A DNA stretch of 43,901 nucleotides from Candidatus Magasanikiibacteriota bacterium (GTDB lineage Bacteria; Patescibacteriota; Patescibacteriia; Magasanikbacterales; GWA2-37-8): the NCBI GenBank assembly GCA_963840935.1, contig CAWJAS010000001.1:1-43901 (forward strand), in the 5' to 3' direction. Under the pieces are notes generated by a model. It was not told the DNA's origin, did no database searches, and was given only the letters and a program-made list of their open reading frames with translations. The position numbers were made by a program, and so were the translations under genes. Below, piece by piece: positions 22,189 to 27,250 of the stretch (its first letter is position 1; the number at the start of each line of letters is the position of its first letter).

Positions 22189-23226
22189 ATGAATGACGAA
22201 GAAAATTTTATTGAAGACGAAGACATCACCGCTCCGGAAGTAAAAAACGAGGAGATTGTTTTTGAAAACACCTTGCGCCCCAAAGAATTGGGTGATTTTG
22301 TTGGTCAAGAACAAATAAAACAAAATTTGGATATCTCCATCAAGGCCTCAAAAAAACGCAATGAACCGATGGAACACATTTTGCTATTCGGCAACCCGGG
22401 GCTCGGCAAAACAACACTTGCCCACATCATTGCTCGTGAAATGTCCGGTAACATCAAAGTCACTTCCGGACCGGCCTTAGAAAAAATCGGTGATTTGGCG
22501 GCTATTCTTTCCAATTTAGAGGAAGGCGAAATTCTTTTTATTGACGAAATACACCGCCTTAACAAAACAATTGAAGAAACTCTCTATCCGGCCATGGAAG
22601 ATTATTCGCTCGACATCATTATTGGTTCTGGTCCGGCCGCCCGCACCATTCGAATGCCACTAAACCGCTTCACTCTAATCGGCGCAACCACAAAAATGAG
22701 TATGATTAGTGGGCCTTTGCGTGACCGCTTTGGCCACAGTTTTCACCTGAATTTTTACGAACAAAATGATATTGAAAAAATACTCAGCCGAAACGCCAAA
22801 TTACTTGGCGTTACAATTGACGATAAATCAACAACTTTAATTTCCGTTCGCGCTCGCCGAACTCCACGAGTGGCCAATCGCCTATTAAAACGAGTGCGTG
22901 ATTTTGCCGAAGTCCACGGCGCCGGTCAAATTAATTTAGACATTGCCAAATCAGCTTTAAACCTGCTTGCCATCGATGAATACGGGCTTGATGAAATCGA
23001 CCGCCGTTTGCTCACGGCCATGATAGACAAATTCAGCGGGGGCCCGGTCGGGCTTTCCACAATCGCCGCCTCAATCGCCGAAGAAATTGACACAATTGAA
23101 GATGTGATTGAACCATACTTAATGCAAATCGGATTTTTGGAGCGCACTCCGCGCGGACGCAAAGTTACTCCGCTCGCCTACAAGCATCTTGGCTTTGAAC
23201 AAAACTCTTCCAATACTTTACTTTAA
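22189..23226 (+). CDS. ruvB: Holliday junction branch migration helicase RuvB
   Basis: LRP, GNPGLGKT Walker A, FIDEIHR, RTPRGR. Confidence 0.97.
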   Translation: MNDEENFIEDEDITAPEVKNEEIVFENTLRPKELGDFVGQEQIKQNLDISIKASKKRNEPMEHILLFGNPGLGKTTLAHIIAREMSGNIKVTSGPALEKIGDLAAILSNLEEGEILFIDEIHRLNKTIEETLYPAMEDYSLDIIIGSGPAARTIRMPLNRFTLIGATTKMSMISGPLRDRFGHSFHLNFYEQNDIEKILSRNAKLLGVTIDDKSTTLISVRARRTPRVANRLLKRVRDFAEVHGAGQINLDIAKSALNLLAIDEYGLDEIDRRLLTAMIDKFSGGPVGLSTIAASIAEEIDTIEDVIEPYLMQIGFLERTPRGRKVTPLAYKHLGFEQNSSNTLL

Positions 23227-23231
23227 TAAAT

Positions 23232-23504
23232 ATGATCACAATACCCTTAATTTCATTTTTAATTATCTATTGCCTGTTCTTGCTTTTATTCGTAATTTTT
23301 TTCTTTGTGAACGTCGGCCATTTGGCAAAAACCGCTTCAGTTTCAATCGCCAGTTTAACCATCACCTTTTTTGTTTTGGCTTTCGCGCTCATAACCGTGG
23401 GCGCGACTTTTTATTTATTGTCTGACGCGAGCTGGGGCAATCAAATAACTATTTTTAACTCGAGTTGGTTCGGTGATAACCTTTCCAAAATAAATCAATT
23501 TTAA
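23232..23504 (+). CDS. Small membrane protein with two hydrophobic helices
   Basis: Tightly packed between ruvB and the next gene. Confidence 0.7.
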   Translation: MITIPLISFLIIYCLFLLLFVIFFFVNVGHLAKTASVSIASLTITFFVLAFALITVGATFYLLSDASWGNQITIFNSSWFGDNLSKINQF

Positions 23505-23508
23505 ACAT

Positions 23509-24069
23509 ATGGGTATTGAGGAATTTATTTACAAAAAATCCTACGAAAAAGTATTGCACAAACTTCGCAGGCATTTAATCACTTTTTTACCGGCCTTTGT
23601 TTTTTTTATTATCATGCTTATTTTGCCGGCAATATTCTATTTTGTTTTAAAAAGCCAGATGCCGAATTGGTTTGAAAACTCGACATCATTCACTCTTTTG
23701 GTCTTACTTGGCAGTATCTATATTTTGAGTGTTTTAATATTTTTGTATTCTTATTTTATTGATTTTTATCTTGATGTTATGATTGTGACAAACGACCGAT
23801 TGATTGATATGGAACAGCATGGGCTTTTTGCTCGCACAATTTCCGAGGTTGATTTGTATCAAATTCAAGATATTACTTCGGAATGCAAAGGAATTTTTCA
23901 CACCATGTTTGATTTTGGTTCAATCATTATTCAAACCGCCGGCGCCCTGCCAAAATTCACTGTGCATAATATAAAGAAACCGCACGAGATGAGAAAAATA
24001 ATTCTTGATTTGGTTGAAGAAGACAGAAAATATCATCACGGGGAAGCGGTGAGACAGGCGATTTTATAA
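23509..24069 (+). CDS. Membrane protein with a bacterial PH (bPH_2-like) domain
   Basis: Two TM helices, then IVTNDRLID...IQDI...FGSIIIQTAG. Confidence 0.8.
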   Translation: MGIEEFIYKKSYEKVLHKLRRHLITFLPAFVFFIIMLILPAIFYFVLKSQMPNWFENSTSFTLLVLLGSIYILSVLIFLYSYFIDFYLDVMIVTNDRLIDMEQHGLFARTISEVDLYQIQDITSECKGIFHTMFDFGSIIIQTAGALPKFTVHNIKKPHEMRKIILDLVEEDRKYHHGEAVRQAIL

Positions 24070-24081
24070 AGACGTATAATT

Positions 24082-24112
24082 AAAAAAGGCCCGACACATT
24101 TCATGTCGGGCC
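24082..24112 (-). terminator. Intrinsic terminator
   Basis: GGCCCGACA-TGAAATG-TGTCGGGCC-T6. Confidence 0.8.
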
Positions 24113-24203
24113 GAATGAACGAACCAAGTGACCAAGGACCGAACACCGGCCGTGAGGGCCGAGTATCCGAGTGCCTGCCCGCCTTGGGCGGGATCGAGGT
24201 TCT

Positions 24204-24752
24204 CTACTCGCAGAGGACGAGGACGCCGTCGGAGGAGCTGAACTCGCAGCGGAAGTTGTCGAGGATGAAGTAGCGGTGCGCACCGTGCACGTTGACGCAC
24301 GGCACGTTGACGTAGCCGTCCTCCCGCCGGCTCGTCCAGCGGGAGTCCTCACTCAGGGCGACGACCCAGATCCACTTCTCCACCTCTTTGGGGTGGCTCG
24401 CGAGGAAACCGGCGAGGTCGCCGGTGTTGGCCAGAATGTGGCCGGCGGCAACCAGGCGCTCCGCAGCCTGCTCGCCCGTCTCTCTTCTGAGGAAAGGCTC
24501 GACCCGCACTTTAACCGTCTGGACATCCGTCCCCTTGAGCGGGAAACGCTCCGGGGTAATATAGGTGTTGAAGTTGCGGTCGTTGCCCGGGCCGAGGGCG
24601 CGCTGGATCAGATTCATCAGACCGAGGGACTGGTCGTAGGTGACCGAGAGACCGATGAGCTTCTTGGCACCGCCGATGATGAGGTCGAACACGAACCCGA
24701 CCACCGGGAGCAACGCCTCCAGCGTCCACTCCTTTTTGTCTTTCCGGCTCAT
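24204..24752 (-). CDS. GC-rich hypothetical protein resembling C-type-lectin-fold DGR target proteins
   Basis: SD GAGGAG before MSRKD; C-terminus W..DGYVNVPCVNVHGAHRYFILDNFRCEFSSSDGVLVLCE; family assignment from recalled similarity only. Confidence 0.7.
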   Translation of the reverse strand: MSRKDKKEWTLEALLPVVGFVFDLIIGGAKKLIGLSVTYDQSLGLMNLIQRALGPGNDRNFNTYITPERFPLKGTDVQTVKVRVEPFLRRETGEQAAERLVAAGHILANTGDLAGFLASHPKEVEKWIWVVALSEDSRWTSRREDGYVNVPCVNVHGAHRYFILDNFRCEFSSSDGVLVLCE

Positions 24753-24876
24753 GATTTCTCTCCTCTGCTTTGGGCGCGCCTCTTGTTCCGACATTATGCC
24801 GAGACCCAAGGCTTGCCATTTCTCTTGATTTTACTTATTTTTTATTAAAATGAGCGTTTTTTTAAGCTAACGTCAT

Positions 24877-24905
24877 ATTATATCACATTTTCGCCTTTTT
24901 GTCAA
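24877..24905 (-). promoter_or_regulatory. Consensus sigma70 promoter
   Basis: TTGACA-17 bp-TATAAT upstream of the GC-rich gene. Confidence 0.8.
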
Positions 24906-24973
24906 GGGTCTTTCTTGGCTAATTTTAGCCAAAATCATAATTATAAAAAGCCCAATTTAGGGGCTTTTTTTGT

Positions 24974-25038
24974 GTCATTCCCGCGTAAGCGGGAATCCAG
25001 AAAATTGACCACTGGATCCCCGTTTACGCGGGGATAAC
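24974..25038. repeat. REP-like palindromic element (ATTCCC-N8-GGGAAT type)
   Basis: gtcattcccgcgtaagcgggaatccag ... ctggatccccgtttacgcggggataac. Confidence 0.75.
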
Positions 25039-25048
25039 AAAATAGTGT

Positions 25049-27250
25049 TTAATAAATCCTCTCCACCGCCACTCCCGTATAATAATATTTCAAAAGCTGG
25101 TCATAAGTCCAAGCGTCTTTGTCTGCCCTCATAGCCGCGTCTTGCGCGCTCATGCCGACTCCGTGCCCGTGCATTGTTTTGCCAATGTCATAAAGACATT
25201 CCACGCTCTGAGTCCACGGTTTGTCGGTTCCACCCCAAACCTCTTTCCAACCACGGGTCTCGCCGTCTGAATTGGCAAAATATGGCGTCACCACCGGCGT
25301 TCCTCCGTGTGTCACCATTTCGCCATAAGTAACGCGCGCCGCCTGCACCACGCGCGGCATCAAAACTTCGGAATTATAACCCAAATACAACTGGTCAACG
25401 GTTGTCGCCACCACGTCATAGGTGCGCTGGTCAGCCGGCACGCCATTGTTCATGTGAAAATAGGCATAACTACGAGCAGCCACCAAAATCGCTTTTATAT
25501 ATTCCATGGCCGCGCCATTTGACGTTTCACCTATGCCCGCCACATATTCATCAAGCAAAAGTTCGTTCACCACCCATGGCACAGCGCTTTTGTTCGAATA
25601 AACATATTCAAAAATATTTCTGTAAGTATTAAAATTTTTGCTTCCTTTCCAACTGACCAATCTGCTATAGCTATCAATCACAAAATAACTGTTACTGTCG
25701 CGCGGAATAAGGCGAATTTTGTCTCTGCAAGTGAAAGTGAGAGAGGCGCTCGTGAAAGTGTAGAGTCCGTCAAAATATTTTAATTCGGCTTTTTCATTGG
25801 CCGGCAACTCACCTCGTAAAATTTCTCCACTCCAAACCTGATATACAAAAGGCGAAGAAAAATCGACCGGGTCGGTGGTTTTAAGCAATCCAACTCTTAT
25901 TTTTGGTTCACTGACCAACACTCGCGTTTGAGATGTGGTAAAACTGGGTTCAGTGTAGCCTGCTGGCGCATCTGATGTTACGGTTAAAGGCAATTCCAAA
26001 ATTCCGCCGTCCAATGTGTGGCCATTAGCCGTCAATTGAAAACGGGCGATGTATTCACCTTTGTATTTTGGCGCGCGGAAAGTAAAATCAATTTCAATAA
26101 TTCCATTTTCCAAAATTTGAGTTGTTTTTTCAAATATTTTTTTCTCGTCTTTCCAGTTGCTGTCGGCAATGGTAAATCTTTCAATAGCTGTCGGGCCGGA
26201 ATCGGTCCGCATACTGCCGGCTTCCTGCCATAAATAATTATTCCATTGAATTGTTCCGTTGTTGCGATAGCGGACTTTGAACTCAATTACCTGCCCACCC
26301 GCGCCTGAAACCTGCCTGGATGAAAAAGCGACCAAGTTAGCTTTATATTCATTTGATACTTCGACCGCCTCGTCTTCAACACCCTCGGTTGAATTGCCGG
26401 CGGTGTCGCCATTGTCTGCCGAAGAGGCCGGAGTAGCAACGGCAGTATTTAATTTATTGACCGCGCTTCTGGTTAATGGGCCAAAATATCCGACAGCCGG
26501 TGATATTTTATTTGCGCTTTGGAATTTGGCGAGCGCGCTTTTGGTGAGTGAACCGAACAGGGTTGTTTCATTACCTGCTGAACCCACGCCGGATGCGGAA
26601 ATCACAAAACCTTTGGCGTTTAAAAATTTTTGCAGTTCTTTCACATCCGCTCCGGTCATGCCAAGCTCGAGATCACGGGTAAAAGTGTATCCGCCCGCAG
26701 TCGCGCTTGAGGCGCTCGAAACAGTTGATGGTTGTGTTGTTGAACTCGGCGCCGTTACTTTTATTTTTAAATAAAAATAACTGGATTTAATCCAAGTCAG
26801 ATTTTCCACGGCCAAATAAAAATCTTCCTGATAATCTCCGGTTTTTGTTGGCGCGGTTAATTTAATTTTTATTTCGGCTGTTTCACCGGGCTTGGTCACG
26901 GCGCTGATTTTTGCCGGCTGGCTTTTGGACAGCCAATTTGAAGAAGCAAAAATGCTCTCTCGATAATTTGAATTGACCGTGTAAGCGGAAACATAATTCG
27001 CGCCTGTCGGATACCATGTGGTTGAGCCGGTATTTTTTATTTTAATGGTTATTTCTTTGGTCGCGCCGGCTTCAATTGTAATCGGGTCAGCCACAGATTG
27101 GCCGGCATAAGCGCCTTGATAACTCAAATCTTTAAATTGCGGTGGGGTGAATTCAATGGCCGATGCGTTTTGGGCGCCAAAAAACAAGGCAAAAATCATT
27201 GCCAAAGAAAAAATAATTGTGCGCTGAAAAACCATATTCATTATTAACAA
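25049..27250 (-). CDS. Secreted SpoIID/LytB-domain protein with Ig-like domains and a peptidoglycan-binding domain
   Basis: Signal peptide; IKNTGSTTW Ig-like domain; G.DVKELQKFLN...GYFGPLTR PG-binding; AARSYA, DQLYLGY, GHGVGMS and LKYYYTG. Confidence 0.85.
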   Translation of the reverse strand: MLIMNMVFQRTIIFSLAMIFALFFGAQNASAIEFTPPQFKDLSYQGAYAGQSVADPITIEAGATKEITIKIKNTGSTTWYPTGANYVSAYTVNSNYRESIFASSNWLSKSQPAKISAVTKPGETAEIKIKLTAPTKTGDYQEDFYLAVENLTWIKSSYFYLKIKVTAPSSTTQPSTVSSASSATAGGYTFTRDLELGMTGADVKELQKFLNAKGFVISASGVGSAGNETTLFGSLTKSALAKFQSANKISPAVGYFGPLTRSAVNKLNTAVATPASSADNGDTAGNSTEGVEDEAVEVSNEYKANLVAFSSRQVSGAGGQVIEFKVRYRNNGTIQWNNYLWQEAGSMRTDSGPTAIERFTIADSNWKDEKKIFEKTTQILENGIIEIDFTFRAPKYKGEYIARFQLTANGHTLDGGILELPLTVTSDAPAGYTEPSFTTSQTRVLVSEPKIRVGLLKTTDPVDFSSPFVYQVWSGEILRGELPANEKAELKYFDGLYTFTSASLTFTCRDKIRLIPRDSNSYFVIDSYSRLVSWKGSKNFNTYRNIFEYVYSNKSAVPWVVNELLLDEYVAGIGETSNGAAMEYIKAILVAARSYAYFHMNNGVPADQRTYDVVATTVDQLYLGYNSEVLMPRVVQAARVTYGEMVTHGGTPVVTPYFANSDGETRGWKEVWGGTDKPWTQSVECLYDIGKTMHGHGVGMSAQDAAMRADKDAWTYDQLLKYYYTGVAVERIY

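Follow-up and report, generated by a model that had tools for sequence, protein, structure and literature searches.

A gene of a retroelement-diversified Patescibacteria family with a predicted lectin-like fold, probably frozen without its template

Can a gene bear the traces of targeted hypermutation in a genome that seems to hold no means of continuing it? This question is raised by a locus in a stretch of DNA from a Candidatus Magasanikiibacteriota bacterium (the window: the whole 43,901 nucleotides analysed, contig CAWJAS010000001.1 of assembly GCA_963840935.1), in which a gene for a protein of 182 residues (P0001) is embedded between two unrelated genes. Among prokaryotes, targeted hypermutation of proteins is known from diversity-generating retroelements (DGRs) only, and these abound in the Candidate Phyla Radiation (CPR) or Patescibacteria. 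A first-pass annotation of the window, made from the sequence, had pointed out that adenine mutagenesis by DGRs yields NNC codons at the C-terminus of lectin-fold targets, and had proposed that this gene is a dispersed variable gene. One part of that proposal stood, namely the membership of a DGR-target family, the predicted fold and the NNC-rich tail, whereas the other part, a dispersed target that is variable at present, did not, as no matching template repeat (TR) was found in 910 kb. It is very likely, in our judgement, that the gene belongs to a Patescibacteria family rewritten by DGRs, with this copy probably frozen and with strong transcription predicted from its own promoter.

The gene, its tail and its relatives

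The gene lies in a GC-rich island that the first-pass annotation had noticed by eye and that counts in 300-nt windows bear out, with a GC content of 0.61-0.67 over 24150-24749 against 0.33-0.40 to the left and 0.39-0.49 to the right, in an assembly of 910 kb whose genome-wide GC content is 40-42%. The coding sequence itself has a GC content of 63%, with 0.62, 0.40 and 0.88 at the first, second and third codon positions (GC1, GC2 and GC3), a pattern typical of coding sequence that uses high-GC codons, and unlike that of an RNA gene. The end of the gene departs from its body, since the count of 31 C-ending codons among the last 38 (24207-24320), already given by the first-pass annotation, was reproduced and compares with 67 of 144 in the rest of the gene (Fisher p = 1e-4). 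The excess in the tail thus goes beyond the GC bias of the gene itself, and the caveat that high GC alone would raise the frequency of NNC codons does not account for it.

Searches with the protein returned nothing from Pfam, one chance-level row from NCBIfam and two chance-level rows from the sequences of the Protein Data Bank (PDB), while 60 homologues were found in a large protein collection (E 1e-67 to 1e-22), those named by organism coming from Patescibacteria/CPR assemblies or metagenomes. The family is small, as a profile search of 1.84 billion cluster representatives yielded 179 matches at E <= 1e-3, 56 of them at E <= 1e-30. In an alignment of 58 members, a variable N-terminus is followed by a conserved core of ~110 residues and a patterned C-terminal tail of ~40 residues. 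Within the tail, positions 141, 147, 149, 152, 154, 156, 159, 161, 163, 165, 166, 169, 170, 172, 174 and 175 are hypervariable, with 10-16 residue types each among the 58 homologues, and they are set in a near-invariant scaffold (V148, V150, P151, V155, G157, R160, F162, L164, F167, S173, G176, L178 and V179) that is conserved at 84-98%. Except at position 170, the hypervariable positions contain almost no K, E, Q, M or W, and the residues found there are thus those encoded by NNC codons; in the window copy, 15 of the 16 hypervariable codons are NNC.

In other genomes, members of this family stand beside the machinery that would rewrite them. A TR is present in four of ten species-representative genome loci (L010, L013, L015 and L018), and over 120 positions it has 100-104 identities with the variable repeat (VR), 13-17 mismatches at TR adenines and 3 other mismatches, where background scores of the scan were 77-90 of 120; of the six loci that lack a TR, two break off 56-180 nt beyond the gene. 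In the TR-bearing loci, the TR begins ~490 nt downstream of the VR (start to start) and is adjoined by a bAvd-like gene on the opposite strand (PF22296) and by a reverse transcriptase (RT) gene of the RVT_1 type (PF00078). A metagenome scan with the single protein yielded 382 pattern hits, none of them confirmed, and a scan with the alignment yielded 33 loci, 31 of which were analysed after L059 and L060 had been dropped as N-terminal fragments at contig ends. A TR accompanies seven of these 31 loci, several of which duplicate elements already counted among the genome loci; 13 have none despite at least 620 nt of downstream sequence, and 11 are too short to tell. Within the same taxonomic family, one of 12 loci has a TR, and the more distant members have host-like GC and non-NNC tail residues. 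Two further TR-less copies of high GC content, L012 (G076) and L011 (G077), have no TR elsewhere in their assemblies either. This linkage marks the family as a genuine target of DGRs in other Patescibacteria.

The tail of the window copy aligns in frame with the TRs of these other genomes. Against the majority base of six family TRs, it differs at 12 of 26 TR adenines and at only 3 of 64 conserved non-adenine positions (p = 9e-6), so that the NNC-rich end, which had been taken as a trace of adenine mutagenesis, coincides with the adenine codons of the family's templates. Moreover, the hypervariable columns are confined to TR adenine codons, with the invariant scaffold between them. The tail of a paralogue in the same genome differs at 17 of 26 TR adenines and at 12 of 64 non-adenine positions, and has thus drifted more than that of the window copy.

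These comparisons also bear on a simpler explanation, in which an ordinary GC-rich gene was acquired horizontally and owes its NNC-rich end to high GC, without any DGR role. Many other GC-rich genes of similar GC3, some of them unrelated by eye, do occur in the genome, and the family is patchy, with a match in nine of 60 other genomes of the taxonomic family, in neither of the two same-genus genomes of that sample, and with no DNA match to the gene body in five same-genus genomes. However, the contrast in C-ending codons between the tail and the rest of the gene, the coincidence of variable columns with TR adenine codons and the homologues with adjacent TR, Avd and RT all speak against it, and we hold it to be very improbable. 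Close family members have a GC3 of 0.64-0.95, and the RT and Avd genes that adjoin them have host-like GC. A depletion of adenine over the whole gene was considered as a further trace of mutagenesis and set aside, because T is depleted too and the ratio of A to T at third positions (family 0.35, ten other GC-rich genes of the genome 0.53, host genes 0.86) is then not decisive.

Other GC-rich regions were noted in this genome (G000; contigs C1 and C2). Islands or groups of genes with a GC3 of 0.72-0.93 lie at C1:663250-680800, C1:765500-770900 and C2:1-9250, single GC-rich genes lie at C1:99010-99501, C1:167451-168638 and C2:127831-128322, and some of the proteins encoded in these regions are long and carry Asp-Ser/Thr dipeptide repeats.

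The structure of the protein was predicted with AlphaFold2 (AF2) from the 58-sequence alignment, with a mean predicted local distance difference test (pLDDT) score of 90.7 and low confidence for residues 1-30. Foldseek found no row at E <= 0.001 against the PDB, its best rows being C-type lectin domains and Bd2740-C at a weak E of 0.13-1. With VIA-align, 43 of 48,161 chains reached Z >= 5 and none reached Z >= 8, and the titles of the 50 rows listed are almost all C-type-lectin or FGE/EgtB-type domains; the best score is that of 8oks_B (7.3), and Lcl-C (8q4e) reaches 6.0, TvpA (2y3c) 6.0 over 130 residues and Mtd (1yu0) 5.2 over 112 residues. The model lends moderate support to a C-type-lectin-like fold with the variable residues at the C-terminus, which is the outcome that the first-pass annotation had expected from structure prediction. 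That annotation had staked the DGR idea on a TR and RT in the genome or its relatives and on a lectin-type fold; relatives do carry TR and RT, and the predicted fold is lectin-like.

As a separate observation on the protein, ~31 residues of the N-terminal helical segment of the paralogue are missing from the window protein (LLSVVGFLFELL...VFDLIVGAKK against LLPVVGFVFDLIIGGAKK; 24752-24650 against C1:179468-179680), and the gap looks as if a deletion had joined two short stretches that resemble each other.

Template searches and the resident retroelement

The assembly consists of two contigs with 100% marker completeness. A BLAST search of the genome for a template repeat, proposed by the first-pass annotation, returned none for 24207-24335: blastn with 24088-24905 against the whole assembly found only the paralogue (C1:179630-180139, 72%) and copies of the flanks, and an adenine-tolerant ungapped scan of the genome gave nothing above background except the same paralogue. 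The positive control behaved as it should, as the TR of L018 was found in its own genome at 88% identity and E 1e-41. The earlier remark that no RT or template repeat lies in the window agrees with these genome searches. A self-comparison of the genome revealed a single TR (C1:730808-730924) with two VRs (731236-731349 and 726165-726281); the completeness of this comparison for C2 is not provable, and the blastn search and the adenine-tolerant scan serve as independent tests.

That single TR belongs to a complete resident DGR with RT and bAvd at C1:726-731 kb, ~700 kb from the window gene, and its RT gene (C1:729618-730241) is the only PF00078 match in the genome. The window gene could in principle be a remote target of this element, since one TR serves two VRs there, and all 17 mismatches of the one and 19 of 20 of the other fall at TR adenines (T on the plus strand), and since Wu et al. 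2018 (PMC5758913) describe remote targets, by definition > 100 kb away from the RT, in other lineages. However, the resident TR encodes a peptide (...AFGNLGNAYWNRDNRQANLNRNDPGNRNDNNGLRSAV) unrelated to the window tail, 24088-24905 has no similarity to the resident DGR region, the resident RT shares only 34-37% identity with the RTs that accompany the window gene's family, and in the survey of Wu et al. 2018 (PMC5758913) remote targets were confined to Lineage 4 and its neighbourhood, with none in the CPR set. The VR of a remote target matches a distant TR, and the resident TR matches its own two VRs only, so that service by the resident DGR is hardly plausible. An active DGR target is recognised by a cognate TR and by an RT and Avd that serve it, and neither was found in this genome. 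With no cognate TR and an unrelated resident TR, the window gene is thus a TR-less orphan and not a remote target, and without a matching template in the genome the copy is likely frozen and no longer diversified.

Alternatively, the gene could still be an active DGR target, with template and RT supplied in trans from a contig gap, a plasmid, a phage or another strain. The state of the tail would suit this explanation, as it is undecayed (the NNC codons and the few non-adenine mismatches given above), with its GC-rich constant 3' end and the downstream hairpin intact; the assembly is in two contigs, and RTs of the same genus are 56-59% identical to those linked to the family. Against it stand the lack of a TR in 910 kb at full marker completeness, the sole PF00078 match being that of the unrelated resident DGR, the recurrence of TR-less copies in other assemblies (L012 in G076 and L011 in G077), and the lack of any tblastn match in 50,697 phage records. 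We regard a supply in trans as improbable, and a frozen copy as the better account of this locus.

The transcription unit and its shared frames

The gene is framed by its own signals (Table 1). The promoter, Shine-Dalgarno sequence, terminator and post-stop hairpin described by the first-pass annotation were all recovered as described, and its four short repeats proved to be real and to form part of a family-wide feature.

Table 1. Features of the locus, with positions in the window
Feature	Position	Strand	Remarks
Intergenic interval, 979 bp	24070-25048		From the bPH-domain gene (23509-24069, +) to the SpoIID-like gene (25049-27250, -)
Near-perfect 18-bp palindrome TTGGCTAATTTTAGCCAA	24915-24932		9 nt upstream of the -35 box; sequence confirmed
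Sigma-70-type consensus promoter TGATATAAT	24877-24905	-	12/12 matches; extended -10 (TG before -10)
Predicted 5' leader, ~118 nt	24753-24870	-	CTTGG and CTCGG motifs; start site inferred from the -10 box
Shine-Dalgarno sequence GAGGAGAG	24765-24758	-	AGGAG core 7 nt before ATG
Coding sequence, 182 aa (P0001)	24204-24752 (ATG 24752 to TAG 24204)	-	Predicted C-type-lectin-like fold; 60 homologues; AF2 model
VR-like tail, residues 140-182 TSRREDGYVNVPCVNVHGAHRYFILDNFRCEFSSSDGVLVLCE	24207-24335	-	Ends in GC-rich constant GGCGTCCTCGTCCTC (position like that of an initiation of mutagenic homing, IMH, site)
GC hairpin CCCGCC-CAA-GGCGGG	24178-24192	-	11 nt after the stop codon
CTYGG array (ACTCGG, ACTCGG, CCTTGG, ACTTGG) with inner hairpin CGGCC-CTCAC-GGCCG	24122-24175	-	Family-wide enrichment
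Intrinsic terminator GGCCCGACATGAAATGTGTCGGGCC + TTTTTT	24082-24112	-	11-bp stem 24112-24088, then T run

In the promoter, TTGACA (24905-24900) and TATAAT (24882-24877) are separated by a 17-nt spacer, and the 910-kb genome has 25 perfect TTGACA-N16-18-TATAAT sites with this one included, some of the others preceding, by eye, tRNA-like or RNase-P-like sequence. Strong transcription is predicted from this consensus. The core of the palindrome upstream of it, GCTAANNTTAGC, has 12 copies in the genome (including C1:126052, 187070, 338770, 338872, C2:17944 and C2:121662), several of which lie 5-15 nt upstream of TTGACA, and it is conserved in the sister cassettes described below; it may be a candidate operator or upstream promoter element. 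The 5' leader is 83% identical to that of the paralogue (C1:179365-179538) and, in its first part, 91% identical to a cassette at C1:338896-338993, and its RNA fold is not exceptional (z = -1.7).

The GC-rich constant end GGCGTCCTCGTCCTC of the tail and the GC hairpin beyond the stop codon are candidates for an IMH-type VR end and for a GC-rich inverted repeat downstream of it; an IMH is defined against the IMH* of a TR, which is absent here. The hairpin and the CAGGCACTC that follows it recur in the paralogue, L029 and L058, with a variant in L017, and a TR was detected in none of these copies, L029 and L017 being too short to judge. Counted over the ~100 nt that follow the stop codon in each of 32 family members, CTYGG appears 89 times, where 200 shuffles gave 8.8 +/- 2.9 (maximum 17), and this 3' flank occurs in family copies both with and without a TR. 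The 3' untranslated region (UTR) of the window copy folds strongly (-59.4 kcal/mol, z = -4.3), and in the comparison with relatives RNAalifold found no consensus pairs over 13 sequences. A hand-drawn model of nested hairpins was rejected, since it is pairable in 77% of cells, is equalled by 42 of 500 shuffles and has a covariation score at the shuffle mean. In the absence of a consensus structure or covariation, the CTYGG motif is conserved as sequence.

The strong folding of the 3' part, together with a GC-rich island that has a strong promoter and terminator in an AT-rich genome, might suggest a structured non-coding RNA gene in place of a protein gene. This is scarcely credible, as the three codon positions differ in GC as expected of coding sequence, the frame is open and conserved in 60 homologues, the structural model is confident and no consensus structure of the 3' UTR was found with RNAalifold. 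In addition, no Rfam match in 23000-26000 reached the gathering score; the nine matches below it (best 32.5 against 80 bits) include a single one inside the open reading frame (Hrs13, 17.2 against 52 bits), those outside falling mostly on terminators and on a repeat element at 24937-25057.

Palindrome, promoter, leader, gene, structured 3' UTR and terminator together form a cassette (24082-24932) within the interval between the bPH-domain and SpoIID-like genes, both of a housekeeping type. In five relatives this interval is much shorter (8 bp in G010, 83-88 bp in G002, G004 and G005, and ~140 bp in G007), and the cassette is thus an insertion; the intervals of G002, G004 and G005, inspected in full, hold one terminator-like hairpin. 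In G003, unrelated AT-rich DNA of ~1.2 kb (37% GC; L020, G003:C6) occupies the site. In the same genus, G001 has a complete DGR at this very site (L083, G001:C11:19000-22400), with bAvd and RT, a TR that has 94 identities and 23 adenine mismatches in 120 positions, and a target gene of 249 aa with a GC3 of 0.89 that belongs to a third family and is related by eye to C1:181863-182780 of G000. By eye, two open frames and a similar palindrome-plus-TTGACAAAA motif can also be seen in L020.

Three cassettes of the genome share the promoter and terminator frame, namely those of the window gene, of the paralogue (C1:179465-180109) and of a gene at C1:339019-339654. The window promoter is identical at 29 of 29 nt at C1:338896, the terminator recurs with 1-2 mismatches in 32 nt at C1:180155 and C1:339739, and the window 3' UTR and terminator are 90% identical over 97 nt to G005:C2:173549-173646. 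The third cassette (C1:338896-339768; L004, L005) encodes a protein of 211 aa (GC3 0.76) without significant BLASTP similarity to P0001, whose own family of 113 homologues has a scaffold-plus-hypervariable tail ending in RFLAVRK. At C1:338730-338798 there is a 97% copy of the sequence upstream of the window promoter (terminator, palindrome and TTGAC), which breaks off inside the -35 box and ends ~100 nt before the third cassette's own promoter; this truncated copy may be the scar of a cassette exchange.

A locus of G005 shows the converse arrangement. In L084 (G005:C2:169500-175500), an RT gene (389 aa) and bAvd adjoin Fpg in the gene order of the L010 DGR, the RT is 56-59% identical to the RTs of the window gene's family, and a GC-rich target-type gene (202 aa) stands in the common promoter and terminator frame. 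G005 is 99% complete, and no TR was found in L084 or anywhere in its genome; the RT-Avd pair of G005 has been left without a template. The Fpg-TsaD interval, which is the seat of the DGR genes in G005, was seen in G000 (C1:243356-244090) to hold a palindrome and promoter frame, a 63-aa hydrophobic open reading frame and its own terminator.

Two further features of the insertion site were noted. A target-site duplication had been suspected by eye (ATAATTA.AAAA.GCCC on both sides), but the copies are the A-rich lead-ins of terminator hairpins and no duplication is claimed. Between the cassette and the SpoIID-like gene, a ~68-nt element (24973-25042) has tandem hairpins, ATTCCCGC-GTAA-GCGGGAAT followed by ATCCCCG-TTTACG-CGGGGAT, with many matches on both strands in relatives of this genome. 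The element looks like a repeat of the repetitive extragenic palindrome (REP) or miniature inverted-repeat transposable element (MITE) type, and it may resemble the ATTCCC-N8-GGGAAT pattern of the dRS3 repeats of Neisseria.

The history that we propose for the window gene would begin in an ancestor or donor that carried the cognate TR, Avd and RT, where the tail would have been written by adenine mutagenesis. Later, the target gene would have moved away or been separated from its template, for which recombination between the conserved frames of promoter and terminator is a plausible route that the arrangement in G005 fits. The cell would now express one fixed binding specificity, and the paralogue at C1:179465-180109 would supply a second.

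Several points weigh against this account. The near absence of decay in the tail (15 of 16 NNC codons, 3 of 64 non-adenine mismatches, GC3 88%) is no less compatible with a very recent loss of the template, or with a template supplied from DNA outside the assembly, than with a frozen copy. There are two contigs, and a small missing piece or an extrachromosomal element could hold the TR. The frozen state, likely as it is, is judged from the assembled sequence, so that diversification might still be going on. The recombination route is proposed from the shared flanks only. The account does not extend to the GC richness of the whole gene across the family. Finally, the fold matches are middling, with no Z >= 8, and according to the note of the tool such Z values can reflect a common arrangement.

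A wider picture can be offered tentatively, as a possibility that we would not favour as it stands: DGR targets of Patescibacteria may circulate as self-contained promoter-to-terminator cassettes that recombine at their conserved frames, are exchanged among DGR loci and intergenic hot spots, and let a lineage bank frozen binding variants with strong expression at a distance from the mutator, with RT-Avd pairs without a template occurring as well. The three shared frames, the truncated upstream copy, the complete DGR of G001 at the same site and the TR-less RT-bAvd pair of G005 would all fit it.

Related systems and biological meaning

Among known arrangements, the single gene with its own promoter and terminator, a deviant base composition and a position between unrelated genes may be likened to the 'morons' of prophages. 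The locus differs from these in that no prophage context was seen within ~2 kb and that the frame is common to several cassettes with different DGR-target-type genes.

DGRs of CPR bacteria are said to have been described by Paul et al. 2017. They are a known kind of system, treated by Wu et al. 2018 (PMC5758913) and by Roux et al. 2021 (PMC8144416). The closest catalogued relative is L018, that is, LCOG01000012.1, which is listed as DGR #337 (LCOG01000012.1_5870_6943) in Supplementary Table S1 of Wu et al. 2018 (PMC5758913), in the CPR set, with the order TG-TR-(AVD)-RT, the VR class 'Ungrouped' and the target entry 'no annotation'. Its target (from Parcubacteria group bacterium GW2011_GWA2_47_26) is 59% identical to the window protein over residues 37-182 (tblastn) and resembles it in the tail scaffold (VP, G, R, F.L..FR, S, GVLV.SE), in a GC3 of 0.95 and in a CTYGG-rich 3' flank. 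In contrast, that target has its own TR ~490 nt downstream, with 13 adenine mismatches, as well as bAvd and RT, all of which the window copy lacks, and the window copy has a different, cassette-type terminator and an extra post-stop hairpin.

The likeness to Mtd of a Bordetella phage (1yu0, Z 5.2 over 112 residues) and to TvpA of Treponema denticola (2y3c, Z 6.0 over 130 residues) lies in the predicted fold and in the placement of variable residues within the last ~40 residues, as judged against the description of these targets in Wu et al. 2018 (PMC5758913). There is no sequence similarity to either; with 182 aa, the window protein is far smaller than they are, and its genome lacks a cognate TR. 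Non-adjacent or remote DGR targets (Wu et al. 2018) share with the window gene the position of a VR-bearing gene far from any RT, but their VR matches the TR of an element, and no such TR exists for the window gene. In the text of Roux et al. 2021 (PMC8144416) that was searched, the words 'orphan', 'paralog' and 'GC content' do not occur, and in that of Wu et al. 2018 (PMC5758913) 'degenerate' does not occur and 'lacking' occurs once. One TR-linked member of the family is already catalogued, and TR-less target copies are not claimed here as undescribed, no wider literature search having been made.

Surveys detect DGRs through TR-VR pairs, and TR-less target copies therefore go unseen by them. 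The present locus offers such a copy in a clean state, with its tail intact, the base composition of its DGR-linked relatives and one of the best promoters of its genome, and its interest lies in this orphan state together with the shared cassette frames. If such copies are frozen variants, they would form a record of specificities that were selected and then shielded from further mutagenesis, and would be promising material in the search for ligands of CPR variable proteins. Moreover, the shared frames, and a single site that holds an orphan target or a complete DGR depending on the species, suggest a testable route by which targets and mutators may be joined and separated.

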